Positions 4,987 through 31,355 of a stretch of DNA of 64,000 nucleotides are shown in pieces (positions within the stretch are counted from its first letter, which is position 1; the number at the start of each line of letters is the position of its first letter). The translations under genes and the position numbers were made by a program. The notes below the pieces were generated by a model. The model ran no database searches. It was given only the letters and a program-made list of their open reading frames with translations, and was not told the DNA's origin. Origin of the DNA: a virus (Duplodnaviria; Heunggongvirae; Uroviricota; Caudoviricetes); the IMG/VR virus record IMGVR_UViG_2574180019_000006, one strand, 5' to 3'.

Positions 4987-4992
4987 TAACAT

Positions 4993-5022: not shown

Positions 5023-5031
5023 TGGTGATAC

Positions 5032-7347: not shown

Positions 7348-7366
7348 CATATGGTGGGGGATATCC

Positions 7367-8705: not shown

Positions 8706-8754
8706 GGGGATATCCCCACCTTCTCTTTGATTTGTAAGCCTTGTTTAAACACAT

Positions 8755-8775
8755 AAGATAACAACTTGTTTAAAC
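8755..8775. promoter_or_regulatory. Palindrome AAACAA-N-TTGTTT upstream of nrdB (operator or 5'-UTR hairpin)
   Basis: ataacaacttgtttaaac ~30 nt upstream of ATG; same motif recurs upstream of many ORFs. Confidence 0.4.
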
Positions 8776-8802
8776 GCACCAAAAAAGAAAAAGGAAAAAC
8801 AC

Positions 8803-9945
8803 ATGTCATATTCAACGTTCCGTTTGGGTGCTAATGATGCAACCAAAGAGCCTATGTTCCTCGGACAATCTGTCAACGTGGCACGTTACGATCAGCAAAA
8901 ATACCGTGATTTTGAAAAGTTGATTGAACGTCAATTGTCTTTCTTCTGGCGGCCGGAAGAAGTTGATATTTCGAGCGATCGTATCGACTTCAACACGAAG
9001 CTGCGGGACCACGAACGTCACATTTTTCTGAGCAATCTCCGTTATCAAACGTTACTCGATTCAGTTCAGGGACGTAGTCCAAATGCAACGCTGCTGCCGC
9101 TTATCTCTATTCCTGAACTGGAAACGTGGGTTGAAACGTGGTCTTTCTCTGAGACTATCCATAGCCGCAGCTACACCCACATTATTCGTGGCATGGTGGA
9201 CGATCCGAGCATTGTTTTTGACGGTATTGTTACGGATGAAGAAATCATCAACCGAGCGATCAGTATCTCTGCTGAATATGACAGGCTTTATGGGATGACC
9301 TGCGAGCGCCAGTCGTTAGGTGAGAAGGAATTTGAGCGTCTGTACGTAAATGAATATGGCTGGGAGCCATACCCTTTGCATCGTCAGCTTTTCCGCACGT
9401 TGGTGTCCATTAATGCGCTTGAGGCGATCCGTTTCTACGTAAGTTTTGCATGTACGTTTGCCTTTGGTGAACGGAAGTTGCTTGAGGGTAACACCAAAAT
9501 TATGCGCTTTATTGCCCGTGATGAAGCTCTGCATTGCGAAGGAACTGAACGCATGATCCGCTTCATGCGTACCGGTCGCGAAGGTTTATTGTGGAAAGAG
9601 ATTGCTGCTGATGAAGAAAACGTCATTTACGACACCATGAAATCAGTCGCCGAACAAGAAATGAACTGGGCAGACTATCTCTTCAAAGACGGTTCGATGA
9701 TTGGTTTAAACGCGGATATTCTCAAAACCTATGTAAAATACCGCACCAATCTGGCTATGAATCGTCTTGGCCTGAAGGCTTTATTTCCAGAAGTTACCAC
9801 TGATCCGCTGGTCTGGATGAACAAGTGGTTGTTAACCGACACACTGCAAATTGCACCACAAGAGGCAGAGCAAAGCACATATCTGGTAGGTCAGATCGAT
9901 TCTACCGTGGATAAGGCTTCTCTAAGCCAGTTTGCAGACCTGTAA
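8803..9945 (+). CDS. nrdB: Ribonucleotide reductase class Ia small subunit
   Basis: 380 aa; near-colinear with E. coli NrdB as recalled ([83 protein letters not shown]). Confidence 0.9.
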
Positions 9946-10022
9946 ACCGATACAAAGCATTATGTGGCCTGGCAACGCTGGGCCACAATGGATCACAAGA
10001 ATTAAGAAGGAGCAAAACTAGC

Positions 10023-10892
10023 ATGAACTTTACCAAACTGACTGACCACCTGAAACTTGCCACCGATCGACTCATTGGATTTAAGCCAGAACCATATGAG
10101 TTGCATGAAGGCCATGGTGTAGCCACTGAAAGTATTTACAAGATGGTCGATCAGTTTCATGAACTCTTCCAGCATCCGAGACGCGTTATGCCGACACCAG
10201 AGCTGCTTCGTCTCCGTGCAAGCCTGATTCATGAAGAAGCTGTAGTGGAAGGTATTCCAGCCGCAATGAATGGGGATATTGAGCAACTGCTGGATGCAAT
10301 GGCCGACTTTTTATACGTTGGTGTTGGTACGATGGTCGCCATCAAAGGTGGTATTTCTACCGGCATGACTTATTACACGCAGGAACAGAGCATTGATCGC
10401 TTTATGCAGACAATTTTTGTGCCTGGTAACACTGTTTTCGATGATATGGCAATGCCATTTCAGGAAGCTCGTGAGGCGTCATGTATGCTCGAAGAGCTGG
10501 CAGATAAACTTGAGAAGAAGACTGTTAAGGATTCTGAGCTGATTCAGGAACTGCGCCGTGTAATGAACAAAATCTATGTGGCGTGCATGATGACTTATCG
10601 ACTGGCTGATTTTCTCGGTATCAATGTCGTCGAGCTGGTTGGCGAAATTCATCGGTCCAACATGACAAAATTATGGCCTGCAGATGCCGAAGAGCGTCGC
10701 CATGCTGTGGCCAACTGCAAATACGACTCTTCTGACCTGGGATTTCGCCATGCTGATGGCACCGATAAGATGATCGGTTTTCGAATTTCCGATGGAAAGA
10801 TTCTGAAGTCTCCAACCTATAGTGATGTCGATTTATCCTCCTTTGTTGAGCAAGCTAAAGCCTCAGCAATGTACGGAATGATCAAAAAATAA
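10023..10892 (+). CDS. putative all-alpha NTP pyrophosphohydrolase (MazG/dimeric-dUTPase-like)
   Basis: Segment IHEEAVVEGIPAAMNGDIEQLLDAMADFLYV fits MazG-type E-E-x2-E ... E-x2-D-x2-D-F-L pattern; nucleotide-metabolism neighbourhood. Confidence 0.4.
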   Translation: MNFTKLTDHLKLATDRLIGFKPEPYELHEGHGVATESIYKMVDQFHELFQHPRRVMPTPELLRLRASLIHEEAVVEGIPAAMNGDIEQLLDAMADFLYVGVGTMVAIKGGISTGMTYYTQEQSIDRFMQTIFVPGNTVFDDMAMPFQEAREASCMLEELADKLEKKTVKDSELIQELRRVMNKIYVACMMTYRLADFLGINVVELVGEIHRSNMTKLWPADAEERRHAVANCKYDSSDLGFRHADGTDKMIGFRISDGKILKSPTYSDVDLSSFVEQAKASAMYGMIKK

Positions 10893-10960
10893 TTGTAGGT
10901 AGTTATCTATCTGTGTATATTGCGCTGGCGCGTTAAATTTCTGAAACAACTATTCGTTTT

Positions 10961-10988
10961 TGGTGGCCTATGGCCACCATTTTTTTAT
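10961..10988 (+). terminator. Rho-independent terminator
   Basis: tggtggcctatggccacca hairpin followed by T7 run. Confidence 0.55.
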
Positions 10989-11036
10989 CTGTCTGGTCTT
11001 GTTCTCTCAATAAATGTAAACTCACGCAATGAATAA

Positions 11037-12167
11037 GTGGTTACTTATCTTTGTGAGGTTTTTGTGTCACTCCTTTTGAATCGTGAGCATACGAACGGTC
11101 AGGTAACAAACGCATCGTATGCAAAAGTTATTGAGACGGTGCTTAAAAGCGGCGTGCAGGCTGATGATCGCACAGGCACTGGTACTTTAAGCACCTGTTA
11201 CGTTCCCTCTTACTACATGCTTACTGGTGGGACTGTGCCGCTTATTTCTGGAAAGGCGGTAAATCTTAAGCCACTGCTTGTCGAACTTGAGTGGTATCTG
11301 AAAGGCACGGGCAACATCCAATTTCTCAAGGATAACGGCGTTAAGATTTGGGATGCATGGGCCGATGAGAATGGCGATTTGGGGCCGGTTTACGGTAAGC
11401 AGTGGCGTCGATGGGAAGATACCCGCATCGTGAGCCATAGTGAATATCTGAGCAAGATCGCTACTTTCCGTGAACGCGGGTACAAAGTCGAGGGATACCT
11501 GGGTATCAGTGAAGATCGCGTAGTGCTGTCCCGTGAAATCGATCAGCTACAGCGTATTGTCGATACACTGCGCACGAACCCTACCGATCGTCGCATCATG
11601 CTTAACGCATGGAACGTAGGCGAGCTTGAGGATATGAAACTGCCACCTTGCCACTTTGTCTTCTCTTTGTGGAGTCGTGAACTGGATTTTGAAACCCGTT
11701 TAACGATGGCAACTGACATTGGTCTTCAACACAGTCGCCTCGGTTACGAGTCTATCTACACCAAGATGCTATACGATCTGGAGATGGACGGCAGTGTTAC
11801 TGAAACTGAACTGGATGAACTTGGAATCCCCAAACGCATCCTCAACTCCTGCCTCGTACAGCGTAGCGTAGACACTTTTGTTGGTATGCCATTCAATATT
11901 GCTGGCTATGGCATTCTCACTCATTTTCTCGCGAAGATTACGGGTCACATGGCCGGTGCATTTGTGCATTTTGGCTTTGACGTGCATTTGTACAACAACC
12001 ACATGGAAGGTGTGTGTGAGCTAATGCAACGACAGGCTCCAGAGCATTCAGATCCGGTCGTTATATTCCCTAATGAATGGTCTGAGCTGGATGATTTCAA
12101 ATGGGACGAGATTCTTATTCTTGGCTATGCCCCTCTACCGTGGATCAAGGTTCCAGTGGCGGTGTGA
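11037..12167 (+). CDS. thyA: Thymidylate synthase (ThyA-like) with two large insertions; true start probably GTG at 11064
   Basis: Conserved ThyA blocks DDRTGTGTLS, WADENGDLGPVYGKQWR, DRRIMLNAWNVGELEDMKLPPCHFVFSLW (catalytic Cys), VDTFVGMPFNIAGYGILTHF, HLYNNHME, GYAPLPWIKVPVAV; ~35-aa and ~60-aa inserts relative to E. coli ThyA. Confidence 0.8.
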   Translation: MVTYLCEVFVSLLLNREHTNGQVTNASYAKVIETVLKSGVQADDRTGTGTLSTCYVPSYYMLTGGTVPLISGKAVNLKPLLVELEWYLKGTGNIQFLKDNGVKIWDAWADENGDLGPVYGKQWRRWEDTRIVSHSEYLSKIATFRERGYKVEGYLGISEDRVVLSREIDQLQRIVDTLRTNPTDRRIMLNAWNVGELEDMKLPPCHFVFSLWSRELDFETRLTMATDIGLQHSRLGYESIYTKMLYDLEMDGSVTETELDELGIPKRILNSCLVQRSVDTFVGMPFNIAGYGILTHFLAKITGHMAGAFVHFGFDVHLYNNHMEGVCELMQRQAPEHSDPVVIFPNEWSELDDFKWDEILILGYAPLPWIKVPVAV

Positions 12168-12168
12168 T

Positions 12169-12582
12169 ATGGCAAGAGGTATGTATGTCTTATGCGAAAT
12201 TGAAGGTGTGCTGGCAAATACCAGCCATCGTAAATCTGTATCTGACTCGGATGCAGGCCAATTCATTGCAGGTGATGAACTCATTTTCCCCACCAGCCGT
12301 ATGTTGCGTGGTTTTGCTCGCTCAGGGGCTGAAGTGGTGCTTATCAGTAGCCGCTCTGAAACTCTTGAAGCGCCCACTAAACGATGGCTGAAAGATTTTG
12401 GTGTTGATTACGACTGGCTTCATCTCGTACCGAATAGCACCAGTTATGAGAAGCATATTAAGCGCACATTAGCGGAGCATAAAGGCGATCTGCTTATCGC
12501 TGCGCTGGTGCACGATCCTCGACTCCGTGCCGCTTTAGCTGACTCTCATCATAGACCGGTCATCTATGAGGTGAGCAAATGA
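12169..12582 (+). CDS. hypothetical protein (possible HAD-like fold, non-canonical)
   Basis: ORF between thyA and DHFR; ATG overlaps thyA stop region; no canonical DxDGT motif. Confidence 0.35.
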   Translation: MARGMYVLCEIEGVLANTSHRKSVSDSDAGQFIAGDELIFPTSRMLRGFARSGAEVVLISSRSETLEAPTKRWLKDFGVDYDWLHLVPNSTSYEKHIKRTLAEHKGDLLIAALVHDPRLRAALADSHHRPVIYEVSK

Positions 12583-13055
12583 AGATGATAGCTGCTGTTG
12601 GCCGTAACTATGAGATCGGCATAGCGAATGAACTGCCCTGGCGTTGTTCTACCGATCTGAAGCTATTTAAGAGACTCACCAAAAACGCCACTGTCGTTAT
12701 GGGGCGTAAAACGATGGAAAGTCTCAAACGCCCTCTTCCAGAGCGTCATAACCTCGTTTTGACGCGCTCTCATGGCTTTGTACCAAATGGATTCTACCCT
12801 GCTGGTGTGGATGATGTGTTGCGATTACCAGAGCCTGTGTGGGTGATTGGCGGGGAACAAATTTACTCGCTATTCATGCCGCATGTTGAAGAGATTTGGC
12901 TCTCCCACATCGGCGTTGATGTGCCAAACGCCGATGCATTCTTCCCGGCAAGCATGATGCGTAATTTAGGCTTTGTGCCTGTTGAAACAGCTTATACCCA
13001 ACGAGCCAGCGAGGAAGAGCCTGGCTTTTCGCAGATCGTATACAGAAGGTCGTAA
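12579..13055 (+). CDS. folA: Dihydrofolate reductase
   Basis: 158 aa; MKMIAAVGRNYEIGIANELPWRCSTDLKLFKRLTKNATVVMGRKTMESL colinear with E. coli FolA N-terminus; RBS gaggtg. Confidence 0.8.
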   Translation: MKMIAAVGRNYEIGIANELPWRCSTDLKLFKRLTKNATVVMGRKTMESLKRPLPERHNLVLTRSHGFVPNGFYPAGVDDVLRLPEPVWVIGGEQIYSLFMPHVEEIWLSHIGVDVPNADAFFPASMMRNLGFVPVETAYTQRASEEEPGFSQIVYRRS

Positions 13056-13699
13056 TGGATTACCGGATTGGGATCACTGGTGCTCAGGGCAGTGGGAAAA
13101 CAACCCTGGCTAAATATATCGACAAACATTACGGAATCCCTTACGTGGATGCTGGTGTCGGAAGTTTGATGAGCCGCCTCGGTGTTCGAGTAGGTGATTC
13201 TATGCCTCTATATGAGCGGCTTCAGATTCAAATGGAAATAGCAAAGCATATAGAGCTACTTACGCGTGGTGCTGAAGGCTTTGTTATCGATCGCACACCT
13301 GCTGATGTTATGGCCTACACGTTGGATTTGGTCGGCCATACAAATGAAGATCGGTGTATTGAGTTAGCCCTCGATATCGAAAAGTTTTGCCACAAAACTG
13401 CTATTTCAAACTTTAACGCCATTGCTGGCCTACGCCCGGGGGTCGCTCTCTCAGAGCGAGATTACTTGCGGTCACAACGAGCATCATTAGACCGTCTGTA
13501 TGTCGCTCGTATTGATGCGTTGATGTGCGGGGAACTGACAAAAATTCACCTGCATCCGCAAAGGGGAGATCTGCAAACCTTCGTCGTTTCCAACCGGTAT
13601 CGCACAGTTGAAGCAAGAGCCAGATCAGTGATGAGAATGCTAGATAACGCTGTAGAAAAGATAGAAAACCGGTTCTGTGGCCGAGTGACCGTTCATTAG
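13055..13699 (+). CDS. P-loop NTPase, putative (deoxy)nucleotide kinase
   Basis: Walker A GITGAQGSGKTT at N-terminus; ATG overlaps upstream stop (TAATG); nucleotide-metabolism context. Confidence 0.5.
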   Translation: MDYRIGITGAQGSGKTTLAKYIDKHYGIPYVDAGVGSLMSRLGVRVGDSMPLYERLQIQMEIAKHIELLTRGAEGFVIDRTPADVMAYTLDLVGHTNEDRCIELALDIEKFCHKTAISNFNAIAGLRPGVALSERDYLRSQRASLDRLYVARIDALMCGELTKIHLHPQRGDLQTFVVSNRYRTVEARARSVMRMLDNAVEKIENRFCGRVTVH

Positions 13700-13760
13700 A
13701 AATTGTTCGCCTCTTCGACATTGCGACAATAAAACTCTCAAAATGGGTTAAGGATAAAAA

Positions 13761-14180
13761 ATGTTTAGTGAAATGTTGCTTGAAGATGAACTGGATCGGA
13801 AAACAACAGAGGCTTTGATTCGTGTAGCGGACGAACATTCCCGGTCGCTTATGAGCGATCGAGAGGCTCGTCTGGCTATTCGTGCCATATTCGAAACTGC
13901 GCAGGGGCTTGTTGGTACACAAGTGGGTGAAGCCATTAACATCGCCATGTCTCAGTTCAGTGAAGGCAGTAAAAAGCCTCTGTTTCCTATGCATTTGATG
14001 CTGGCTGGTGGCACAGTGCTTTATATCTCTGTTTGTCTGGATAGCAACCAAATCAATATTCTCAACACTGTGTCAGGTAAGTGGAAAGATCCGATTGTCT
14101 GTGAAACCAGTGAAGAAACTTTGAAAAAAGCGGCTCAATTTGTACGTAGCGCACTACTTAAGGGCGCTAAGAAGTTGTAA
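13761..14180 (+). CDS. hypothetical protein (139 aa)
   Basis: ORF with RBS aagga 8 nt upstream. Confidence 0.45.
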   Translation: MFSEMLLEDELDRKTTEALIRVADEHSRSLMSDREARLAIRAIFETAQGLVGTQVGEAINIAMSQFSEGSKKPLFPMHLMLAGGTVLYISVCLDSNQINILNTVSGKWKDPIVCETSEETLKKAAQFVRSALLKGAKKL

Positions 14181-14189
14181 GGAGTTCTG

Positions 14190-14747
14190 ATGACAACGAT
14201 TGTTGCAGGCATCGATATCGAGTCTACGGGACTGGATTTCCTTGCTGGTCATAAAATTATTGAAATCGCAATTACCCGCTATGAACTGGAGACACAGAGA
14301 CATATTGATAGTCTGGAGATGCGTTTTAACCCTCGCAGAAACATAGATCCGAAAGCTCAAGCCGTTCATGGCATTTCATTGGAACAGCTCGCAGCTGAAC
14401 CTTTGTTGTCAAATCATGCCAGCGAAATTGGCGCTTATATGGGGGCATGTAGTGTGTGGGTTGCTCATAACGGCGAAGCATTTGATATACCATTTATTCG
14501 ACACGAGTTTTCAGGGTATGGAGTAAGACTGCCAGAAGTTCCTGTTATAGATACTATGTTATCGGGATTGTGGGCCACAGAAGACGGTAAACGTCCCCGC
14601 CTTGAAGAGTTGGCCTTCTCTCTTGGCTTTATATACGATCATGCCAAAGCACATAGTGCCTTATATGACACAAACTTAATGATGCAATGCTTCTTTAAGG
14701 CACGTAATAAGTACGGATTTTTTAAATTACCCTCTGAAATTGTGTAA
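14190..14747 (+). CDS. DnaQ-like 3'-5' exonuclease (DEDDh family)
   Basis: Exo I IDIESTGLD, Exo II VAHNGEAFDIPFI, Exo III HSALYDTNLM; RBS aaggag. Confidence 0.7.
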   Translation: MTTIVAGIDIESTGLDFLAGHKIIEIAITRYELETQRHIDSLEMRFNPRRNIDPKAQAVHGISLEQLAAEPLLSNHASEIGAYMGACSVWVAHNGEAFDIPFIRHEFSGYGVRLPEVPVIDTMLSGLWATEDGKRPRLEELAFSLGFIYDHAKAHSALYDTNLMMQCFFKARNKYGFFKLPSEIV

Positions 14748-14749
14748 AA

Positions 14750-14787
14750 CAAAAGCCTACTTTAAAAAGTTTAAAGTAGGCTTTTTT
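14750..14787 (+). terminator. Rho-independent terminator
   Basis: aaaagcctactttaaa...tttaaagtaggcttttttt perfect hairpin plus T-run. Confidence 0.6.
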
Positions 14788-14904
14788 TAAAGAACAGTCG
14801 CCTTTCAATCATTTCCTGCCTGTATTTAATACTTTTCCGCCTGATAGGTTTAGTCAAAATGCAGCCATCGAAACGCAAATGTAACCAAACAGAAGGAGAC
14901 TTAC

Positions 14905-15714
14905 ATGAGTTCGGTTGAAAATGTAATGACAAATGATGATCTGGACGAGCTGACAGCCATGTTGCAATCACTTGATGAACCAGTAAAAAAAGCTGCACAG
15001 GTTGAAAATACTGATGATATTGACGATCTGCTGCTCGGCCTAGATGCTGGCGTAGCCATGAGTTCTGATGATGTTGCCGAAGAACTGTTCAATGAAGAAA
15101 AAGCAGGTGATTTCAGCTCTGCTTTAAATGAGTTGGAGTTAGCGCATGAGCCTATAAACGTAATTAACGCTGAAAGTGTTGAAGCTGCCGAAAACGAGCC
15201 AGAACAATTGGGATTTATTGAGGTTGAAGAGTGTGTTGAGGTTAATGATGAATTAAAAGTTCAACAGTCAAATGATAGCAATACAAATAAAAAAGCTCGT
15301 ACTGCAAGAGGTCCTCGTTTTACTTTAAGTGATAAAGATGATTCGTTTTTCAATAAAGCGGGCTTAGAAAAAGATATTTTCTTAGACGCTTACGATAACG
15401 CGCCTGTCAAAGCAAAGGATAAGATATTAAACCTTCTTAATTGGTTTAGCGGAGGTCCAGATATTAGTGTTTACACGGTAATTTCCATGAGACACCTTCT
15501 CACAGAAAAGAAGGCTACAAGTAATAGTATTAAGATTGCTTTAATGAGCAATCCAGAAAAACCGTATCCGCTTAACACTGCGTCAACTCAGGCTGGGCAA
15601 ATGATGGCTGTATTTCCAGCGACAGGAATTGCCGTTAGAGACGGTGGAAATCTAACATTGAACGAAGAATCACCGATCGTTAAGAAGTTTGTCGCGGAGT
15701 ACACTATTGGATGA
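14905..15714 (+). CDS. hypothetical protein with strongly acidic N-terminal ~110 aa
   Basis: 269-aa ORF, RBS aaggag; N-terminus rich in D/E (DDLDELTAMLQSLDEP...ENTDDIDDLLLGLD). Confidence 0.5.
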   Translation: MSSVENVMTNDDLDELTAMLQSLDEPVKKAAQVENTDDIDDLLLGLDAGVAMSSDDVAEELFNEEKAGDFSSALNELELAHEPINVINAESVEAAENEPEQLGFIEVEECVEVNDELKVQQSNDSNTNKKARTARGPRFTLSDKDDSFFNKAGLEKDIFLDAYDNAPVKAKDKILNLLNWFSGGPDISVYTVISMRHLLTEKKATSNSIKIALMSNPEKPYPLNTASTQAGQMMAVFPATGIAVRDGGNLTLNEESPIVKKFVAEYTIG

Positions 15715-15866
15715 CGTTCCCCTACTTAAAATAAAGCCCATAGAGAGCTTTATAGTACTGGGTAAGCCAATCACATACCCAGCACCACAAAAACGCGCCA
15801 GAGAGCTTCTCGTTTGCATTTCTGGCGCGTTTTATTTGATTGCCAGACATAAAATCAAATGCAAAA

Positions 15867-15886
15867 ATAGGTATATACTTACCTAT
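15867..15886. promoter_or_regulatory. Intergenic palindrome ataggtatatacttacctat
   Basis: Near-perfect palindrome of recurrent family, 10 nt upstream of MTase start. Confidence 0.35.
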
Positions 15887-15897
15887 CGAGAAAGAAG

Positions 15898-16491
15898 ATG
15901 ATTGCAGCCGAAAAAATCAAACAGCGAAAGCGCGACAACTCTCTTCGTGACCTCTGGAGAACACCTGACTGGCTGTTTTCTGCCATTCAACGTTATCTTG
16001 GAGTGACATTTGATGTTGACGTTGCCTGCAACAAGGACAATGCAAAGCTGCCTAATTTCATAGGCGTTGAGCGTGATGCTTTGAAATCTGAATGGGGACA
16101 GCCAGGTACAATTGCCTTCCTCAATCCACCCTACTCCAAAATCTACCCCTGGATTGATGCGGCTATACGTGAGCAGGCTCGCGGAGTTACAACAGTGATG
16201 CTAATTCCTCAATCCCTAGATACAAAGTGGTATGAGCGTGCAACAGAGTGTGCGAATGAGACGATTATTCTGTCTGGTGGCCGCGTAGCGTTTGTCGAGC
16301 CTGACGTAAATCTGGGTCAGGTAGAAGTAAACATCAACCCAGGTGGCAGTATGCTCGTTGTTTTTCGAGGATTCTGTCAGGACGCTGGGCACTCTATAAG
16401 CAAGATCCCTTTGGACGTCATGAAAAGTCTGGGAGGGTATGATCCTGCGAATGTGATCAGGAAAAAAAGACCATCAAAGAAGGCTGCTTAG
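15898..16491 (+). CDS. DNA N6-adenine methyltransferase (phage Dam-like family)
   Basis: 197 aa; WRTPDWLF N-terminal motif and catalytic FLNPPYS typical of phage N6-adenine MTases. Confidence 0.8.
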   Translation: MIAAEKIKQRKRDNSLRDLWRTPDWLFSAIQRYLGVTFDVDVACNKDNAKLPNFIGVERDALKSEWGQPGTIAFLNPPYSKIYPWIDAAIREQARGVTTVMLIPQSLDTKWYERATECANETIILSGGRVAFVEPDVNLGQVEVNINPGGSMLVVFRGFCQDAGHSISKIPLDVMKSLGGYDPANVIRKKRPSKKAA

Positions 16492-16520
16492 TTTGTTCTG
16501 GCGTCTGTAATTAGCCTGCT

Positions 16521-16565
16521 TCTGTATATATAAATAACTACATATTAATTATTAATATACGGAAG
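16521..16565. repeat. AT-rich palindromic element, copy 1 of 2 (ctgtatatataaata...ttaatatacggaag)
   Basis: ~55-bp element with conserved flanks duplicated at 47571-47625. Confidence 0.5.
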
Positions 16566-16676
16566 AAGGCTGTTTTGTATCAGAGACTCCAGACCTGAAC
16601 ATCACTACAGAATCCACTAGAGCCCCTTCCCAGACGCTTTAAAATCGATTTTATAAACCACTTTAAGGAAACCAAC

Positions 16677-16907
16677 ATGTCATACCCGACTAATGTCGTT
16701 GCGCTCGTAGAGAGCGATTTTCTGGCCCAGGCTCGTGAAATGATGAAAGATCGTGAGCAGGCTTTCAACTTGTACGAATGGGCAATTAAGTGCTTGCATC
16801 TTGGCGAGCATCGCGAACTTGTTGAACAGCTTTTAGGTGAGTTGATCAATGAGGTGTTTGCCTTGAATGTTCAACTACATGGTAGAGAAAATAATCAATC
16901 ACAATGA
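16677..16907 (+). CDS. hypothetical small protein (76 aa)
   Basis: ORF with RBS aaggaa 6 nt upstream of ATG. Confidence 0.4.
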   Translation: MSYPTNVVALVESDFLAQAREMMKDREQAFNLYEWAIKCLHLGEHRELVEQLLGELINEVFALNVQLHGRENNQSQ

Positions 16908-17487
16908 TAGATAAGTACAAACTATTCATAAAGTGAATTGTAAGTGCTAAGATCTGATAGTTTCCAGTCGTAGACTGGAGACTCGACCTGATGGGTGGGG
17001 GTAAGCGTCACTGGCGTCAGGTTTAAAAAAGCTCACTACCAGCGTAGAACTGGTGCCGTTTAGGTGTCGGGGAAGGGGGAACCAAAGTGAGCAGAGACAA
17101 GGGTCACTTTATGATTGTCGAGTCTGGGGTGTTTCGAGAGGTTGAATCCAGTACTCCCCTTCATAAAGTGTGGGAAGATCTCGGTTCTGGGGTGCTGTCA
17201 TCCATAACTTCCCAAGTCTAAGCTGGCAGTAGACTTAGACCATAACTTTTCAGGTTATGAAACGACCAGGTTGGTGAGAGATTTATACTCACCTCCCTGG
17301 GAGAGTATTACCTGAAAAGACAACCTCTCACTTCGTTCGAGGTGAACTTCACTCACTTCGTTCGTTCAGTTCAGGTTTATAAAAACCTGTTCTGGGAAGT
17401 AATTTGTTTATTTTAATAATTATTAACACGCACGCGTGTGCGCACGCGCGAGGAAAAATCGGCGCGGCGCTTGATTCAGGAGTTTAT

Positions 17488-18078
17488 ATGACGACGAAGA
17501 CACCAGCCCGATCGCAAGCAAAAACTCGCAAAAAAGCCAAAAACAAAAATTCTCCCCGCACCAATCCCACAACGCCTGTCGTAGAGTTCAATCCCCAGCT
17601 TAAAACCGTGAAAATCTTCAGTGATGGCTCTTGCCTTAAAAATCCGGGTGGCCCGGGCGGTTACGGTATCGTTCTTCAGTATCGTGGAGAGGAACGCGAG
17701 TTCTCAGATGGTTTTCATAGCACCACCAATAACCGCATGGAGATGATGGGGGCACTTATCGGGCTGGAGCGTTTGAAATATCCATGCAACGTTATTTTGC
17801 ACTCTGATAGCCAGTATCTGAAAAACGGCATGACACAGTGGATGAAATGGTGGAAACGCAATGGATGGATGACTTCTGACAAAAAACCGGTAAAGAATGT
17901 TGATCTGTGGAAGCGTCTGGATGAGGCCGCAAGTCGACATAATGTTCGCTGGAAGTGGGTTAAAGGTCACGCCGGGCATCGTGAAAATGAAATATGTGAT
18001 CGACTCGCGAAGATCGCAGCTTTTTCAGCAGCAGATATGCCTCACAAGAAAGATATTGGTTTTGTTTATAACAAATAG
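17488..18078 (+). CDS. rnhA: Ribonuclease HI with N-terminal basic extension
   Basis: Core [84 protein letters not shown] colinear with E. coli RnhA; ~40-aa Lys/Arg/Thr-rich leader; RBS aggag before ATG 17488. Confidence 0.85.
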
Positions 18079-18226
18079 TAAGTAAGTGTTTACCTATCAT
18101 TTTAAATCATGTATCTTATCGGCGTCAGGATGACAATGTGTCGGTAAGACACAGTTCCAGGATGGAACGAGAAAGGCGGCTGGCAATCGCCAGCCGCAAC
18201 TCTTTCTGACACTGGATGGAGTCCAC

Positions 18227-18721
18227 ATGGCACGTCAAACCTATTTCACTTCTGTAACTAAACGTCCTCGTTCTTTACGTCAAATTTTGGCCGAATTATT
18301 TAGCGGTCGTGTTATGTCACGCCTTGATGAACTAGAGACTACCGTTCGGTTGCTGAATGAACGTTTAGATAATCAAGCGTCAGTTGTTGCGAACGTGGGG
18401 GCGATTGTTGCCTCTGGTTCTTCACGCGAAGCGAAAAATGCACGGCCTTTAGTGAAGGAGAAAAACAACAAGGACAGTTCGAATGGAAAATTTTCAAAGA
18501 AAGAGGCTGAAACCAATGGCCTACGTTCTCATTATAGTTTCACTGGCGACGGTAGCCGTTCCAGCCGGTCAGAGCCTTTTGATGCCGGATTCATCCACCA
18601 CCACACCTTCGTCGACGACAATTACCACCACTCCAGTGGAGCGTCCTGTCACTCTGGATGGGATGGCGGTGGATGCGATACCTCAAGTTCATCCAGTTAC
18701 TCAGGATCATGCTGTGACTAA
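18227..18721 (+). CDS. hypothetical protein; 3' half overlaps next ORF in another frame (extent uncertain)
   Basis: RBS ggatggag upstream; N-terminal half coiled-coil-like, C-terminal half low-complexity G/S/C-rich. Confidence 0.3.
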   Translation: MARQTYFTSVTKRPRSLRQILAELFSGRVMSRLDELETTVRLLNERLDNQASVVANVGAIVASGSSREAKNARPLVKEKNNKDSSNGKFSKKEAETNGLRSHYSFTGDGSRSSRSEPFDAGFIHHHTFVDDNYHHSSGASCHSGWDGGGCDTSSSSSYSGSCCD

Positions 18722-18734
18722 GGCGGTTGTATGA
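18516..18734 (+). CDS. putative secreted/membrane-anchored Thr/Pro-rich protein
   Basis: RBS aagagg 9 nt upstream of ATG 18516; N-terminal signal-like MAYVLIIVSLATVAVPAGQ then TTTPSSTTITTTP linker. Confidence 0.4.
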   Translation: MAYVLIIVSLATVAVPAGQSLLMPDSSTTTPSSTTITTTPVERPVTLDGMAVDAIPQVHPVTQDHAVTKAVV

Positions 18735-18919
18735 ACTGGTTTTCAAATCACTTTGGAAAAATTTGGCTGGCAATTCTTGCCCTCATGGCCGCCGGTTGGG
18801 TATCGAACATTATAAAACTTGTTTGCTCTGGCGATCTCCAGTTTCAGGCTGGCATGACCTTAGCTCGTGTAGTTGGGATTTTTATTTTTCCAGTCGGTTC
18901 GGTACTTGGTTATTTCTGA
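18731..18919 (+). CDS. small membrane protein (62 aa, two predicted TM segments)
   Basis: ATG overlaps upstream stop (ATGA); hydrophobic stretches IWLAILALMAAGWV and VVGIFIFPVGSVLGYF. Confidence 0.4.
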   Translation: MNWFSNHFGKIWLAILALMAAGWVSNIIKLVCSGDLQFQAGMTLARVVGIFIFPVGSVLGYF

Positions 18920-18973
18920 CGGTTGTTAGTGCATATGCATTGACCGTCTTTGCGCAAGCAATTTATTTAACTA

Positions 18974-18990
18974 GAAAACAACTTGTTTTG
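18974..18990. promoter_or_regulatory. Palindrome gaaaacaacttgttttg upstream of TerB-like gene
   Basis: AAACAA-N-TTGTTT family, ~25 nt upstream of ATG followed by aaaaggaaaacacATG. Confidence 0.4.
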
Positions 18991-19012
18991 ACAAATAACA
19001 AAAGGAAAACAC

Positions 19013-19438
19013 ATGTTAGGTTTCTTCAAAAAGAAAACTCGTAAAGCTGTTATCGAAGTCAAAAAAATGGAGAACCGTGATGCGGTTGAGGCCACCGTGT
19101 GGGGCGCGTACATGATCTCCTATGCCGACGGCACATGTGACGCAAAAGAAATTGCCATTCTTGAGAAGACAATTGCAGCTCTGCCTGCGTTTTCTCCGTT
19201 TGCTGGTGAAATTGCCCAAATGAGCGCCAATATCCGTGCTCGTTACGAAGCGTCCCCTCGTTCTGCTAATGCACAGGCTATTCGTGAGCTGTCTGATATT
19301 GCGGGGACTCCAGAGGCGGTCGATGTTTTGTGTCTGTGCCTTGATATTGCCGATCAGGACGGCATTGGTGAACAAGAAGAGCAGGCACTGAAAAAGATCG
19401 CCCAGGCGCTTCAGTTGTCACTGGATGCTTATCTCTAA
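19013..19438 (+). CDS. putative TerB-like domain protein
   Basis: 141 aa; two acidic Asp/Glu-rich helical repeats (YADGTCDAKEIAILEK; DQDGIGEQEEQALKK) resembling TerB/DjlA-N fold; assignment tentative. Confidence 0.35.
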   Translation: MLGFFKKKTRKAVIEVKKMENRDAVEATVWGAYMISYADGTCDAKEIAILEKTIAALPAFSPFAGEIAQMSANIRARYEASPRSANAQAIRELSDIAGTPEAVDVLCLCLDIADQDGIGEQEEQALKKIAQALQLSLDAYL

Positions 19439-19596
19439 TGCTTGAGAGATTCCGGCTTGTGATCGTCATTGCTCTTCTGGTGATGGCGGTTTTGGTGGAT
19501 TTTACGGGAAAGATGATGTCTGTCATTTCTGATGGCGTCCTCATTGGTTTGGCGATCTACTTCGCTTATCCGTTAGTTCGTAAAGCAAAGTGTTAA
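19438..19596 (+). CDS. small hydrophobic membrane peptide (52 aa)
   Basis: Not in ORF track (<60 aa); ATG overlaps upstream stop (TAATG); sequence MLERFRLVIVIALLVMAVLVDF...; followed by terminator. Confidence 0.35.
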   Translation: MLERFRLVIVIALLVMAVLVDFTGKMMSVISDGVLIGLAIYFAYPLVRKAKC

Positions 19597-19599
19597 TGA

Positions 19600-19626
19600 C
19601 AAGGGCCAAATGGCCCTTGTGTTTCG
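19600..19626 (+). terminator. Rho-independent terminator
   Basis: caagggccaaatggcccttg hairpin followed by tgtttcg. Confidence 0.5.
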
Positions 19627-19702
19627 TTGACCGAAATAGAGAGTTTGCACCTTTACGTTTAGCTTGCTCCCCTTTTATGCCACATCACAATAAAGCCAAT
19701 AA

Positions 19703-19720
19703 GAAAACAACTTGTTTAAG
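19703..19720. promoter_or_regulatory. Palindrome gaaaacaacttgtttaag
   Basis: AAACAA-N-TTGTTT family upstream of ORF 19736. Confidence 0.4.
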
Positions 19721-19735
19721 CATTAGGAAAAACAC

Positions 19736-20302
19736 ATGTGCAAGAAATGCAAAGCGATAGCTGATGAACAAAACGCCTTATTCGAAGAAATGGATGCTAA
19801 TGAACTGGTCAAAATGTTAGCCATTCTTCGAGGAATAGAAGACGTTTCCATATTTGAGAGACTGTTTACAATACTTAATTTTAATTCCACCTTTGAAGAG
19901 CCAACTCAGATTGTAGCTTTGGCACACCATTTCGGTGTTCATTACCTTGCTGAAAAAGAGAGAGCTGATAAGTTGCAAGCGACTTTGGATATGGTGAGCG
20001 AGACTCAAGAAACTGATGACGGTAACAAAAGTGAGACGATTATTGCCAGCAAAGATCGTGAAATTGCCGGGCTTAAATCCTCTCTAACGATGTTGATGTC
20101 TGCAATCAACCTTATGTCTTCTAAAGCAGGTTCTAAAATGCCATCACTAAACAGCGACGATCCGATGGCCGTTCGCCAGCTTTTAGGTGCAATGGCCGAC
20201 CAGCTCGACGACACAAAGAGTCGCCTTGAAGACATGATGCGGGAGCTCACGCATCGCCATGACTTGAATAAGCAGCCGCACAAAACGCAATACGCACTCT
20301 AA
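19736..20302 (+). CDS. hypothetical protein (188 aa)
   Basis: ORF preceded by conserved ggaaaaacacATG leader. Confidence 0.45.
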   Translation: MCKKCKAIADEQNALFEEMDANELVKMLAILRGIEDVSIFERLFTILNFNSTFEEPTQIVALAHHFGVHYLAEKERADKLQATLDMVSETQETDDGNKSETIIASKDREIAGLKSSLTMLMSAINLMSSKAGSKMPSLNSDDPMAVRQLLGAMADQLDDTKSRLEDMMRELTHRHDLNKQPHKTQYAL

Positions 20303-22190: not shown

Positions 22191-22895
22191 ATGAACAACC
22201 TCCAGTTAGAGCATTTTAACGTCACAGGCCATTCTGATTTTCCTTTCAAGTTTACATTGAAAGGTTATGCAGAGGATGCGGTAGGCCAGATCATTATTGA
22301 TAAAGGCATCGTTAAGTTTGAGGGGAATTTTGATGAATCCGCGAAAACATTCATAGACTTCGTTGCCAAACGTTGGAGCGAGCAATGGAAAGACCTGGAA
22401 AAGCGCGCTAATGAGTTTGATCGGTTCATGGATGCAATGGATACAGCAAAAGAGGCTCTTGCTGCCGGGACTCCGTTAGATCTGGAGTCACTTTTCAACG
22501 GCGAAGTGGCCTCTGCGATGTTCGCCACCATGTTCGCGGGTGAGTTCGTCCGCAGCGGTGCCAAAAACTACCTTGAGCTGGATTACAACGTCCCTGCAAT
22601 TGGCGACTTCGTCGTTACCATCCAACGCAAAGAAGGTAAGACGCCAGGTGAACGCGTCGCAGAGCTTGAGGCCGTTGTGGAACAGCGTAACGGAGAGTGT
22701 GACCGTTTGATCAACGAGCTTCATGCACTTCGGGAAGAAAGAATATGTGCGGGTAGCAATACACGTAATGCTGCGGATATCTACTTCCAGTTAGTCGAGG
22801 AATGCCAGATTCCACCAGGTGGCTCTCTTGTCGATTACGTCAGACATTTAATGGCGGAAGTTAACTCCAGCCATAAAGATGGTGAGGTGCGCTGA
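22191..22895 (+). CDS. hypothetical protein (234 aa)
   Basis: ORF with conserved gagaaaaacacATG leader. Confidence 0.45.
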   Translation: MNNLQLEHFNVTGHSDFPFKFTLKGYAEDAVGQIIIDKGIVKFEGNFDESAKTFIDFVAKRWSEQWKDLEKRANEFDRFMDAMDTAKEALAAGTPLDLESLFNGEVASAMFATMFAGEFVRSGAKNYLELDYNVPAIGDFVVTIQRKEGKTPGERVAELEAVVEQRNGECDRLINELHALREERICAGSNTRNAADIYFQLVEECQIPPGGSLVDYVRHLMAEVNSSHKDGEVR

Positions 22896-23275: not shown

Positions 23276-23305
23276 ACGCTACAAATCCTTCGGCATGAAT
23301 AAATA

Positions 23306-23340
23306 AAGGCCATAAGTTGTGGCCTTAAATAAATTGTTTT
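23306..23340 (+). terminator. Rho-independent terminator
   Basis: aaaggccataagttgtggcctt hairpin followed by aaataaattgtttt. Confidence 0.45.
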
Positions 23341-23394
23341 CCACCTTTTCTTATTTGTGAAAATAACCACAACTAGAAAACAACGGAGTTAAGA

Positions 23395-24036
23395 ATGTCT
23401 AGTATTTCCGAAGCTCATATGTTCGCCGCTGGCGCTCATGGTGGCGTTGGTCAGAAAAGAAAATATACCGGCGAAGACTACATCAACCACCCGGTTGCGG
23501 TCCGAGAGATTGTTGCATTGCATGACGGAACCGTGGAGATGCAAATCGCGGCGCTTCTGCATGATGTGGTCGAAGACACCCATGTAACCATAGAGATGGT
23601 TCGTGATCACTTCGGTGAGCGCGTAGCTGAAATGGTTCAGGCTCTGACCAACATTGCAAGGCCAGAAGACGGCAATCGAATACAGCGTTTCATCATCAAT
23701 GTCCGGGAGCTGGAGCAAAATCTCGACATGCAGACGCGCATGATCAAGCTGGCTGACCTGCTCGACAATACCTCTTCTATCGTGAGTCGCGATCCCGAGT
23801 TTTCAGCTGTCTACCTCGCAGAGAAAGAACTGATGCTGGACGTACTCTTTCACGGCAAAGAGATTGGTGCCAACGCTGATGTTGTCGAGTACATGGAGAG
23901 GATAGGTATAGAACACCCGTTGCTATTAAGCGCAATGGCGAAAGTCACTGAAGGTATTGCGCTTCTGAAACCGGTACACATCAAACGTTATGAAAAACAC
24001 AAATCGCTGATCTGGAGCGCGTGGGAGGCTGCATGA
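23395..24036 (+). CDS. HD-domain phosphohydrolase, RelA/SpoT-hydrolase-like (putative small alarmone hydrolase)
   Basis: HPVAVREIVALHDG ... AALLHDVVEDT matches the RelA/SpoT HD (p)ppGpp-hydrolase signature; 213 aa, no synthetase domain; RBS acggag. Confidence 0.6.
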   Translation: MSSISEAHMFAAGAHGGVGQKRKYTGEDYINHPVAVREIVALHDGTVEMQIAALLHDVVEDTHVTIEMVRDHFGERVAEMVQALTNIARPEDGNRIQRFIINVRELEQNLDMQTRMIKLADLLDNTSSIVSRDPEFSAVYLAEKELMLDVLFHGKEIGANADVVEYMERIGIEHPLLLSAMAKVTEGIALLKPVHIKRYEKHKSLIWSAWEAA

Positions 24037-24575
24037 AGGTCGAAAAAATAGATGTTCTTTCCTTTGTGCTGACGGATCTGGAACGCCTCGATCCGGTTCG
24101 AGTAATGATTGAAAACTACGAACCTGGTAAGGGAAGAATCACCATCATCTGCTACGGAAAAGCGTGGACTGCGGCTTGGTTTGCTATGGGCGGTGATGAT
24201 GTGCAGACGTTCATTAAGCGGGTCAGCAACGAGTATCTAATCGGCTATTTCGACTCTCAACTGCGAAGCACGGTCGACGATGACAACGATGCAAATCTGC
24301 TTTTCGTGAAGTCAGAAATCATAAAGTTACGAAGAGAGAGAGAAATCGACGCCGTACTGGCTCGTGAAATGTGGGACGAGGCGGAAAACGCCGATGACGT
24401 AAAAGAAAGCTGCTGTTGTTTCGGCGTCGGTAACAAACTGCTGAATCTCTTTGGTGATGATCCGTGGTATGCCGACTGGCCAACGGTACCAAACCCGAAA
24501 TACCAGTATCTGGAACGCATTGTGAACGCGGTACGTGAAGGGCTGAAAGAGTTAGACAAGTTAGAGGCATCGTAA
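24033..24575 (+). CDS. hypothetical protein
   Basis: ATG 24033 preceded by gggagg; overlaps upstream stop. Confidence 0.45.
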   Translation: MKVEKIDVLSFVLTDLERLDPVRVMIENYEPGKGRITIICYGKAWTAAWFAMGGDDVQTFIKRVSNEYLIGYFDSQLRSTVDDDNDANLLFVKSEIIKLRREREIDAVLAREMWDEAENADDVKESCCCFGVGNKLLNLFGDDPWYADWPTVPNPKYQYLERIVNAVREGLKELDKLEAS

Positions 24576-28063: not shown

Positions 28064-29164
28064 TCACACTGCGCGGAATGCGATTTCGCCAGGTATTACT
28101 TCACCTTGCCAATACATTTGGGCAGCAACGCGATCTGCGAGGTCACGATAAATAGCTGTAAATTCGCTATCTGGACGACTAATAACGGTTGGTGTTCCGT
28201 TATCCAGATCTTCACGAAGAGAGATATGAAGTGGCATTTGGCCTAACAACTGCGTGTTGTATTTCTCGGCCAGTTTCTGTGCGCCACCGGTGCCAAAAAT
28301 TGGCTCGTGATGACCGCAGTTACTGCAAATATGCACACTCATGTTTTCAACGATACCCAGTACCGGCACTTCGACTTTTTCGAACATCACAATGCCTTTC
28401 TTCGCATCGATCAGCGCGATGTCTTGCGGCGTAGTTACCACAACCGCACCAGTTACAGGAATGTTCTGCGCCAGCGTCAACTGAATATCACCAGTGCCCG
28501 GCGGCATATCGAGAACAAGATAGTCCAGATCAGGCCACAATGTTTCCTGCAACATCTGCATTAACGCCTTGCTCGCCATCGGTCCACGCCACACCATTGC
28601 ATTGTCGTCGGTGACCAGATAACCAATAGAGTTGGTTGCCAGGCCATGAGACATGATAGGTGCCATGTGAGTACCGTCAGGTGAGGTTGGACGTTGGTTT
28701 TCCGCGCCCAGCATGGTTGGAATTGATGGACCATAGATATCGGCATCCAAAATACCAACTTTCGCACCTTCAGCAGCCAACGCCAGTGCCAGGTTTACCG
28801 CCGTGGAGGATTTACCCACGCCGCCCTTGCCTGAGCTGACGGCGATAATGTTCTTAACGCCATTAATGCCTGGTTGGTTTTTGACACGCTTAAGCGTGGC
28901 AATGTTGTACGACAGCTTCCAGTCAATAGCCTTTGCGCCAGTGATACGGAGCAGATCACCACTACATTGCTCTTTCAGGTCTTCAAAAGGCTTATTCCAC
29001 ACGAAAGGCATGATTAGTTCGACATGCAGTGTGTCATCCATCAACGCAACATGGTGTAACGCTTTAAGCGTAGTCAGGTTGTGTTTCAGGGTTGGGTGCT
29101 GAAAATTAGCCAGCGTACCGGCTACCATTGCTCTCAGGGCATCCGGCGATTTGGACTCGCTCAT
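28064..29164 (-). CDS. mrp: Mrp/ApbC Fe-S cluster carrier ATPase (ParA/MinD-family)
   Basis: 366 aa; deviant Walker A SGKGGVGKSST, CxxC (CSNCG); near-identical by recall to enterobacterial Mrp/ApbC; divergent from metG as in the E. coli chromosome. Confidence 0.9.
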   Translation of the reverse strand: MSESKSPDALRAMVAGTLANFQHPTLKHNLTTLKALHHVALMDDTLHVELIMPFVWNKPFEDLKEQCSGDLLRITGAKAIDWKLSYNIATLKRVKNQPGINGVKNIIAVSSGKGGVGKSSTAVNLALALAAEGAKVGILDADIYGPSIPTMLGAENQRPTSPDGTHMAPIMSHGLATNSIGYLVTDDNAMVWRGPMASKALMQMLQETLWPDLDYLVLDMPPGTGDIQLTLAQNIPVTGAVVVTTPQDIALIDAKKGIVMFEKVEVPVLGIVENMSVHICSNCGHHEPIFGTGGAQKLAEKYNTQLLGQMPLHISLREDLDNGTPTVISRPDSEFTAIYRDLADRVAAQMYWQGEVIPGEIAFRAV

Positions 29165-29321
29165 CCCGTCTCCTTTATTTTAATTTGCGCAATTGTCGCC
29201 TTGTAGTGTACTCCAGCTACGACATTTAATCATTTATGAGAAATGCTGTTATCACATGGCAGACATAAGGCCATTTTGTTACTATCAAGCCCCTTTTCAC
29301 TACAAAGAAGTAATGCCTACT

Positions 29322-31355
29322 ATGACCCAAGTCGCGAAGAAAATTCTGGTGACGTGCGCGCTGCCGTACGCTAACGGCTCAATCCACCTCGGCCATATGC
29401 TGGAGCACATCCAGGCTGATGTCTGGGTTCGTTACCAGCGAATGCGCGGCCACGAGGTTAATTTCATCTGTGCCGACGATGCCCACGGTACGCCAATCAT
29501 GCTGAAAGCACAGCAGCTTGGTATCACACCGGAACAGATGATTGGCGAAATGAGTCAGGAACATCAGACTGATTTCGCAGGCTTTAACATCAGCTATGAC
29601 AACTATCACTCTACGCACAGCGAAGAGAACCGTCAGTTGTCCGAGCTTATCTATACTCGCCTGAAAGAGAACGGTTTTATTAAAAACCGCACCATCTCTC
29701 AGCTGTACGACCCGGAAAAAGGCATGTTCCTGCCGGACCGTTTTGTAAAAGGCACATGCCCGAAATGTAAAGCGCCGGATCAATACGGCGATAACTGTGA
29801 AGTCTGCGGCGCGACATACAGCCCGACGGAACTGATCGAGCCGAAATCAGTGGTTTCTGGCGCTACCCCGGTAATGCGTGATTCCGAACACTTCTTCTTT
29901 GATCTGCCCTCTTTCAGCGAAATGTTGCAGGCATGGACCCGCAGCGGTGCGTTGCAGGAGCAGGTGGCAAACAAAATGCAGGAGTGGTTTGAATCTGGCC
30001 TGCAACAGTGGGATATCTCCCGTGACGCACCTTACTTCGGTTTTGAAATTCCGAACGCACCGGGCAAATACTTCTACGTCTGGCTGGACGCGCCGATTGG
30101 CTACATGGGTTCCTTCAAGAATCTGTGCGACAAACGCGGCGATACCACCAGCTTCGATGAATACTGGAAGAAAGACTCCACCGCCGAGCTGTACCACTTC
30201 ATCGGTAAAGATATTGTTTACTTCCACAGCCTGTTCTGGCCTGCCATGCTGGAAGGCAGCAACTTCCGCAAGCCGACCAACCTGTTTGTTCACGGCTATG
30301 TGACGGTGAACGGCGCGAAGATGTCCAAGTCTCGCGGCACCTTTATTAAAGCCAGCACCTGGCTGAATCATTTTGACGCCGACAGCCTGCGTTACTACTA
30401 CGCTGCGAAACTCTCTTCGCGCATTGATGATATCGATCTCAATCTGGAAGATTTCGTTCAGCGTGTGAATGCCGATATCGTTAACAAAGTGGTTAACCTG
30501 GCCTCCCGTAATGCAGGCTTTATCAACAAGCGTTTTGACGGCGTGCTGGCAAGCGAACTGGCTGACCCGCAACTGTACAAAACCTTTACTGATGCCGCTG
30601 AAGTGATTGGCGAAGCATGGGAAAGCCGCGAATTTGGTAAAGCTATCCGTGAAATCATGGCATTGGCTGACCTGGCTAACCGCTATGTCGATGAACAGGC
30701 TCCGTGGGTGGTGGCGAAGCAGGAAGGACGCGATGCCGATCTGCAGGCGATTTGCTCTATGGGCATTAACCTGTTCCGCGTGCTGATGACGTACCTGAAG
30801 CCGGTACTGCCGAAACTGACTGAACGTGCAGAAACATTCCTGAATACAGAACTGACCTGGGATGGTATCCAGCAACCGCTGCTGGGCCATAAAGTGAATC
30901 CGTTCAAGGCACTGTATAACCGTATCGATATGAAGCAGGTTGAAGCACTGGTGGAAGCATCTAAAGAAGAAGTGAAAGCAGCTGCCACGCCAGTAACTGG
31001 CCCGCTGGCAGATGATCCGATTCAGGAAACCATCACCTTTGATGACTTCGCCAAAGTTGACCTGCGCGTGGCGCTGATTGAAAACGCAGAGTTTGTAGAA
31101 GGTTCTGACAAACTGCTTCGCCTGACGCTGGATCTCGGTGGTGAAAAGCGTAATGTCTTCTCAGGCATCCGTTCCGCTTATCCAGATCCACAGGCACTGA
31201 TTGGTCGTCACACCATTATGGTGGCTAACCTGGCACCACGTAAAATGCGCTTCGGTATCTCTGAAGGCATGGTGATGGCTGCTGGCCCTGGCGGGAAAGA
31301 TATCTTCCTGTTAAGCCCGGATGTCGGTGCTAAACCTGGCCACCAGGTTAAGTAA
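29322..31355 (+). CDS. metG: Methionyl-tRNA synthetase
   Basis: Starts [30 protein letters not shown] (HIGH motif), KMSKS present, C-terminal tRNA-binding domain; essentially colinear with E. coli MetG as recalled; ORF-track start 29193 is an upstream in-frame extension. Confidence 0.95.

Follow-up and report, generated by a model that had tools for sequence, protein, structure and literature searches.

We identified a stand-alone, single-domain hydrolase of the RSH type, a small alarmone hydrolase (SAH) with an HD active site, on a part of an SSU5-like Escherichia coli phage-plasmid of roughly 110 kb. Its orthologue in Salmonella phage SSU5, PaSpo, has been described before and is in experimental use; the assignment is correct and not new, and RefSeq already annotates the protein as an HD-domain protein. 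The gene very probably encodes a Mn2+-dependent 3'-pyrophosphohydrolase of the RSH family, a PaSpo-subfamily SAH and the E. coli phage-plasmid orthologue of SSU5 PaSpo, with a biological role that we infer. In the following, the window is the whole stretch of 64,000 nucleotides that was analysed; coordinates of the features are listed in Table 1.

The gene and its phage-plasmid context

The ORF of the SAH gene has 213 codons, with an ATG start, a TGA stop and bounds exactly as listed in Table 1. It is followed by a 180-aa ORF with similarity to the C-terminal part of PHROG 3451, for which newer RefSeq records use the name 'phiTE_072 family protein'. The 119-bp spacer upstream of SAH contains a hairpin that has a terminator-like score on the minus strand only. 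This hairpin is also present in the sister phage-plasmid Cyrano and is therefore located outside the SAH cassette described below. No plus-strand sigma-70 promoter was detected by a scan of the spacer, and no Rfam matches for structured RNA were found across the whole window. An antisense ORF opposite SAH (23389..23718, 109 aa, TTG start) was also observed and was regarded as the antisense shadow that a coding region commonly casts.

A sequence-only reading of this DNA had proposed that the SAH is borne by a mobile element. This was borne out by the surrounding genes, as the host is an SSU5-like phage-plasmid in which terminase, portal, capsid and tape-measure genes occupy the 39-64 kb part of the window. 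The 4-kb neighbourhood of SAH was 99.8% identical to pLAU-OXA1, a 111.7-kb circular plasmid, similar to many further non-mobilizable E. coli plasmids of 105-115 kb, and 86% identical to Salmonella phage SSU5. Within this neighbourhood, the SAH gene is part of a co-directional run of small 'ea'-type early/accessory genes, and a gene for a 561-aa DUF4942 DNA methyltransferase is located upstream of it.

Table 1. Features of the SAH gene and its surroundings (positions in the window)
Feature	Position	Strand	Evidence or remark
SAH CDS, 213 aa, orthologue of PaSpo of Salmonella phage SSU5 (SSU5_099)	23395..24036	+	ORF, profile matches, identity, model, dN/dS
Shine-Dalgarno GGAG, 6 nt 5' of the SAH ATG	23385..23388	+	direct reading of the sequence
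K21-R22-K23-Y24, basic substrate-phosphate-binding motif	23455..23466	+	HMMER alignment to 3nr1_A, conservation
H32, first metal-binding histidine, in YINHP	23488..23490	+	aligns with MESH1 H35
AALLHDVVEDT, residues 52-62: metal-binding HD dyad H56-D57 and catalytic ED pair E60-D61	23548..23580	+	
K118-L-A-D121-L-L-D-N125: fourth metal ligand D121, and N125	23746..23769	+	MESH1 D122/N126
Residues 153-213: insertion (~157-174) and basic terminal helix (190-213)	23851..24033	+	alignment, model, charge count
Downstream ORF, 180 aa	24033..24575	+	ATG overlaps the SAH stop by 4 nt (ATGA)
Hairpin, 7-bp, G+C-rich (AAGGCCAT...ATGGCCTT), in the spacer upstream of SAH	23306..23326	no strand	
Cassette, 1,205 bp, SAH and downstream 180-aa ORF	23370..24574	+	in the window and SSU5, absent from Cyrano

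Hydrolase domain, active site and fold

Profile matches of the SAH were far beyond chance. Residues 8-135 matched Pfam HD_4 (E=1.2e-18; score 67.8 bits, gathering cut-off 27.2), the protein matched PHROG 990, 'metal-dependent phosphohydrolase' (E=2.9e-55), and the NCBIfam family TIGR00691 (spoT_relA) was matched only over model positions 1-123 of 687, i.e. over the hydrolase domain alone (E=1.4e-24). All 22 PDB chains detected at E<1e-4 were SpoT, Rel, RelA, MESH1 or small alarmone hydrolases. These matches agree with the earlier claim that the HD signature H...AALLHDVVEDT is that of a (p)ppGpp hydrolase domain. The accompanying claim that a synthetase domain is absent also stands: synthetase, TGS and ACT domains were not found in the 213-aa protein, its matches are confined to the HD region, and HD and HD_4 were the only significant families.

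In alignments with MESH1 and SpoT/Rel, the comparison that the sequence-only reading had suggested, all Mn-binding and catalytic residues of the SAH were aligned, and none of the Mn-binding residues was missing; across 79 homologues these residues were invariant or nearly so. The HMMER alignment to human MESH1 (3nr1_A, the chain numbering of which is one behind UniProt) paired R22-K23 with R24-K25, H56-D57 with H61-D62 and E60-D61 with E65-D66, and likewise N125 with N126; the metal-binding H...HD...D tetrad (H32, H56, D57 and D121) is complete and corresponds to H35, H61, D62 and D122 of MESH1. Conservation was assessed in an alignment of the 79 homologues, which extended down to 43% identity. 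Twelve residues were invariant in this alignment (R22, Y24, Y29, H32, P33, H56, E60, D61, T62, K118, D121 and N125), and K21, K23 and D57 were conserved in at least 90% of the sequences.

The AlphaFold2 model of the SAH, for which the same 79-homologue alignment was the input, was all-helical, with a mean pLDDT of 96.9 and a pTM of 0.92. The best 50 Foldseek matches in PDB were all RSH hydrolase domains (MESH1, SAH, Rel, SpoT or RelA), led by MESH1, P. aeruginosa SAH, C. glutamicum RelH and the hydrolase domains of Rel and SpoT. Superposition of MESH1 3nr1_A on the model gave a target-normalised TM score of 0.82 and an rmsd of 2.4 Å. Human and Drosophila MESH1 (3nr1, 3nqw, 5vxa) have the same single-domain RSH hydrolase fold and identical metal ligands, ED pair and RK motif; however, they are only ~26-28% identical to the SAH, lack both the 157-174 insertion and the basic C-terminal helix, and are eukaryotic enzymes with NADPH phosphatase activity. 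Fold and active site are also shared with P. aeruginosa SAH (6yvc), C. glutamicum RelH (7qod) and the B. caccae (p)ppApp hydrolase Aph1 (7smg), which differ in being 22-27% identical and in being encoded by chromosomal housekeeping or immunity genes, not by phage cargo.

The best structural matches included MESH1 complexes with NADPH (5vxa) and PAPS (9chy), and SAH promiscuity is reported in PMC9765508. It could thus be argued that the physiological substrate is another 3'- or 2'-phosphorylated nucleotide, e.g. NADPH or PAPS, as reported for MESH1. We consider this very improbable, as the in-cell neutralisation of five toxSASs by the SSU5 orthologue (see below) already demonstrates activity on their products, and we found no literature evidence that PaSpo proteins of bacteria or phages turn over NADPH or PAPS.

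Orthology to PaSpo of phage SSU5

The SAH and SSU5_099 (YP_006906731) have equal length (213 aa) and could be aligned without gaps, with 186 of the 213 residues identical (87%). SSU5_099 occupies the same position in SSU5 as the SAH gene in the window, with conserved gene order. A tblastn search of SSU5 detected a single RSH-HD gene, SSU5_099, at one place in the record, and because it is the sole such gene we took SSU5_099 to be the published PaSpo^SSU5. The SSU5 SAH was classed as PaSpo by Jimmy et al. 2020 (PMC7229694). Given the 87% identity and the synteny, the protein described here would belong to the same subfamily (PaSpo; Atkinson 2011; Jimmy 2020).

The two elements are both SSU5-like phage-plasmids, and in both of them the SAH gene has a DUF4942 methyltransferase gene upstream and an overlapping ORF downstream, the latter being 87% identical between the window and SSU5 (SSU5_100). 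They differ in their hosts, Salmonella for SSU5 and E. coli for the element studied here, and the two SAH proteins differ by 27 substitutions, 17 of which are in residues 153-213, outside the catalytic core. Comparison of the two genes gave dS = 0.33, dN = 0.061 and dN/dS = 0.185, and the SAH gene is therefore maintained by purifying selection. By region, the dN/dS between the window and SSU5 was 0.11 over the first 152 residues and rose to 0.29 in residues 153-213.

This C-terminal part contains the features that set the phage-plasmid proteins apart. Both the insertion at ~157-174 and the helix at 190-213 were present in the phage-plasmid clade and absent, according to the alignment, from SAH homologues of ~170-180 aa from other contexts. 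The model has helices at residues 161-170, 175-189 and 193-212 of this part, and the 190-213 segment contains 5 K/R vs 2 D/E residues.

Functional data on PaSpo are from studies of toxSAS toxins. SSU5 PaSpo neutralised all five validated toxSASs (CapRel, PhRel2, FaRel2, PhRel and FaRel) in plasmid co-expression experiments in E. coli (PMC7229694, Table 1). Its co-expression from pMG25-paSpo enables the purification of CapRel^SJ46 (PMC9712102) and was also used for the purification of FaRel2, for which leaky expression suffices; the authors of the FaRel2 study state that PaSpo removes the tRNA modification (bioRxiv 10.1101/2024.07.05.602228). Removal of the 3'-pyrophosphate from the tRNA CCA end was demonstrated in vitro for two other SAHs, MESH1 and ATfaRel, and ATfaRel restores the aminoacylation of pyrophosphorylated tRNA (bioRxiv 10.1101/2021.04.30.441581). 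Neither an in vitro assay of PaSpo^SSU5 or of the E. coli variant nor an infection experiment with PaSpo^SSU5 was found in our literature search. ATfaRel, the antitoxin of C. marina FaRel, and the SAH of phage PVP-SE1 are likewise stand-alone proteins, and each is active against every toxSAS class (PMC7229694); they differ from the protein described here in belonging to the PbcSpo, and not the PaSpo, subfamily, and ATfaRel further differs in forming an operon with its toxSAS, whereas the SAH in the window is an orphan.

A two-gene accessory cassette and its distribution

In a blastn comparison with Cyrano, homology ended at position 23369 and resumed at 24575, and this break defines the bounds of the two-gene cassette. 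The block of SSU5 that matched positions 23296-24557 was 86.8% identical (blastn). In PLSDB, we detected the DUF4942 marker on 205 Escherichia plasmids and the SAH gene on 49, i.e. about one quarter of E. coli SSU5-like plasmids contain SAH and about three quarters do not. The corresponding numbers (SAH gene/DUF4942 marker) were 39/47 for Salmonella, 41/81 for Enterobacter and 14/24 for Citrobacter plasmids. In complete E. coli genomes, SAH was present in 44 of 5,426, always on a plasmid and never on the chromosome, and the E. coli plasmids that contained it were only phage-plasmids of roughly 105-115 kb. SAH is an accessory, dispensable gene despite purifying selection; it is dispensable because of its presence on only 49 vs 205 Escherichia plasmids and because of the existence of deletion-fusion and HD-to-HG variants.

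Several such variants were observed. One E. coli homologue (P0009, 231 aa, 62% identical), located on contigs of up to 113 kb, a size expected of phage-plasmids, has the sequence AALLHGVIEDT, with Gly in place of Asp in the HD dyad, and also possesses a differing 18-residue C-terminal tail. As judged from its sequence, this protein is probably catalytically dead or altered. In four further sequences, P0012-P0014 (206 aa; P0012 is from Enterobacter hormaechei) and P0010 of E. coli (186 aa), SAH has been destroyed by deletion and fusion to another gene. In P0012, an Ea22-like N-terminus similar to ORF 22191 of the window is joined to SAH from approximately residue 75, and in P0010 an AAA_28 ATPase N-terminus similar to ORF 13055 of the window is joined to SAH from 'EDTHV'. 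Both P0012 and P0010 lack H32 and an intact HD dyad.

In the E. coli/Salmonella clade, SAH and the downstream ORF are co-inherited. We considered whether the downstream ORF is an obligate partner of SAH as a general rule and rejected this idea, as Klebsiella-type relatives have either a dissimilar downstream gene or DUF4942 directly downstream. In Klebsiella-type SSU5-like elements, an SAH with 52% identity precedes the DUF4942 gene, and the neighbours differ. In one such relative, a divergent SSU5-like element (a 110.6-kb Logan contig, SRR31304528), a Tad2-like gene (PF11195, anti-Thoeris; L005:2563-2877) was found ~2 kb upstream of a 43%-identical SAH. Such an arrangement suggests that the SAH region is a collector of accessory and anti-defence genes. 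Another observation concerns PHROG 3451, a 287-aa profile, positions 13-101 of which are matched by ORF 22191 (22191-22895) and positions 105-282 by the downstream ORF (24033-24575). In other phages a single protein comprises both parts; in the window they are split by the rest of ORF 22191, ORF 22895 and SAH, which is evidence of mosaic recombination in the 'ea' region.

The 4-nt overlap of SAH with its downstream neighbour resembles the organisation of toxin-antitoxin operons, and PbcSpo-subfamily SAHs do serve as antitoxins (PMC7229694). The SAH might thus be viewed as the type IV antitoxin of a toxSAS module on its own element, comparable to Cellulomonas marina ATfaRel. However, PHROG 3451, the family of the downstream ORF, is one of the 'ea' region of phages, and this ORF is not kept beside SAH in the Klebsiella-type relatives. 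The flanking ORFs contain no RelA_SpoT synthetase domain (PF04607) and gave no PADLOC hit, and the annotation of the near-identical pLAU-OXA1 includes no RSH synthetase. We therefore rejected an element-borne toxSAS partner, and an antitoxin role of this kind is extremely improbable.

Proposed function and alternatives

Based on established knowledge of RSH enzymes, the SAH would strip the 3'-diphosphate from (p)ppGpp or (p)ppApp in a Mn2+-dependent reaction, and may also remove the pyrophosphate from pyrophosphorylated 3'-CCA ends of tRNA, as MESH1 and ATfaRel do in vitro. In E. coli cells, its orthologue SSU5 PaSpo covers two toxic chemistries, that of FaRel, which makes (pp)pApp, and that of CapRel, PhRel, PhRel2 and FaRel2, which pyrophosphorylate tRNA. 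The orphan accessory cassette, located in the early, non-structural region, may protect replication of the element against abortive-infection toxins of the CapRel type, and might additionally dampen host alarmone pools. We favour counter-defence against CapRel/PhRel-type abortive infection as the putative biological role. The suggestion of the sequence-only reading that nucleotide-based defences are countered fits the in-cell toxSAS neutralisation by the 87%-identical SSU5 protein (PMC7229694, Table 1). CapRel homologues are reported from E. coli and Salmonella prophages and from strains of Enterobacter and Klebsiella (PMC9712102), and these CapRel-bearing genera (Escherichia, Salmonella, Enterobacter and Klebsiella) also host SSU5-like elements. 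Our literature search found no report of a phage SAH acting as counter-defence in infection and no study of SSU5 that deals with phage-plasmids and ppGpp.

CapRel-type systems are often located on rival prophages such as SJ46. A tentative extension of the counter-defence reading, which we regard as possible but somewhat doubtful, is that the 157-174 insertion and the basic C-terminal helix (190-213) are an adaptation to pyrophosphorylated tRNA acceptor ends, that the cassette provides broad-spectrum counter-defence for establishment and replication in Enterobacteriaceae armed with CapRel-type systems, and that its patchy occurrence tracks local host defences.

A different main role for the SAH would be a reset of the stringent response, in which host (p)ppGpp is degraded and a growth-permissive state for replication or lytic development is maintained, independently of toxSAS defence. 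The catalytic site is the same as that of the (p)ppGpp hydrolases SpoT, Rel and MESH1, the nrdAB, thymidylate synthase and DHFR genes of the element fit a metabolic takeover, and the stringent response can restrict phage. Phages are known to counter (p)ppGpp with unrelated proteins: synthesis by RelA/SpoT is inhibited by the portal protein Gp8 (Nat Commun 2026, PMC13483052 / bioRxiv 10.64898/2026.01.27.700999), and the MazG-like phage protein Atd1 depletes (p)ppGpp (bioRxiv 10.1101/2022.06.09.495361). Like the SAH, Atd1 is a phage-encoded enzyme, and it acts against defence by reducing alarmone levels (same reference); however, it has a MazG all-alpha NTP pyrophosphatase fold and no HD domain, and is an analogue and not a homologue. 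The functional data that we found for PaSpo are limited to toxSAS neutralisation, including that of toxSASs that make no alarmone; measurements of (p)ppGpp hydrolysis or of host alarmone levels were not found for PaSpo, and a stringent-response reset as the main role appears rather unlikely. Dampening of the stringent response is compatible with the counter-defence reading, and the two are not mutually exclusive.

The gene might also be a lysogenic-conversion trait which protects the carrier from (p)ppApp-synthetase toxins of competitors, such as T6SS Tas1-type effectors, MuF polymorphic toxins or exported alarmone synthetases. FaRel, which the SSU5 orthologue neutralises, produces (pp)pApp (PMC7229694), the (p)ppApp hydrolases 7smg and 6yvc are among the homologues of the SAH, and SAHs are described as immunity proteins against such toxins in PMC9765508, PMC12226406 and PMC12691689. 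On the other hand, such a toxin or delivery system was not found nearby, and the position of SAH among early-type 'ea' genes has the flavour of the lytic cycle. A role of this kind is improbable.

Phage-borne SAHs, including SSU5 PaSpo, have already been described and used as laboratory tools against toxSAS toxins, and the identification of the enzyme itself adds little. The new detail is modest and involves the 1.2-kb two-gene cassette, its confinement to phage-plasmids, its frequent absence, and the destruction of some copies by deletion or active-site mutation. If the SAH is a natural counter-defence against CapRel-type immunity, it would provide a clean case of enzymatic reversal of a tRNA-targeting abortive-infection toxin, and would be relevant to the host range of phage-plasmids by which resistance genes, e.g. 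blaCTX-M-15, are disseminated.

Additional genes of the element

Positions 1-19500 of the window are occupied by a nucleotide-metabolism and DNA-processing block, which includes nrdA/nrdB, thymidylate synthase, DHFR (12579-13055), Dam methylase, RNase H, TerB, an RNase T-type exonuclease and an AAA_28 kinase-like ORF. A weak HAD_PNKP-like ORF was detected at 12073-12582. In pLAU-OXA1, an ISEcp1-blaCTX-M-15 unit (L001:2542-5737) is inserted between the TerB/DUF3927 genes and a 188-aa ORF, ~4 kb upstream of SAH; the window does not contain this insertion at the corresponding site (19438-19736).

The window also contains a divergent gene pair, an apbC/mrp-type Fe-S carrier ATPase gene (28064-29164, minus strand) and metG (29193-31355, plus strand), the latter coding for a full-length methionyl-tRNA synthetase (tRNA-synt_1g, E=4e-166, and tRNA_bind). 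Both genes are annotated likewise in pLAU-OXA1. It is curious that one element combines a tRNA synthetase with a hydrolase that may repair the 3' ends of tRNA. Outside the window, pLAU-OXA1 encodes a DUF1778/GNAT pair (L008:30785-31583), which we take to be a member of the TacA/TacT-type family of tRNA-acetylating toxin-antitoxin systems. If so, the pair would represent a second function related to the tRNA acceptor end on the same element.
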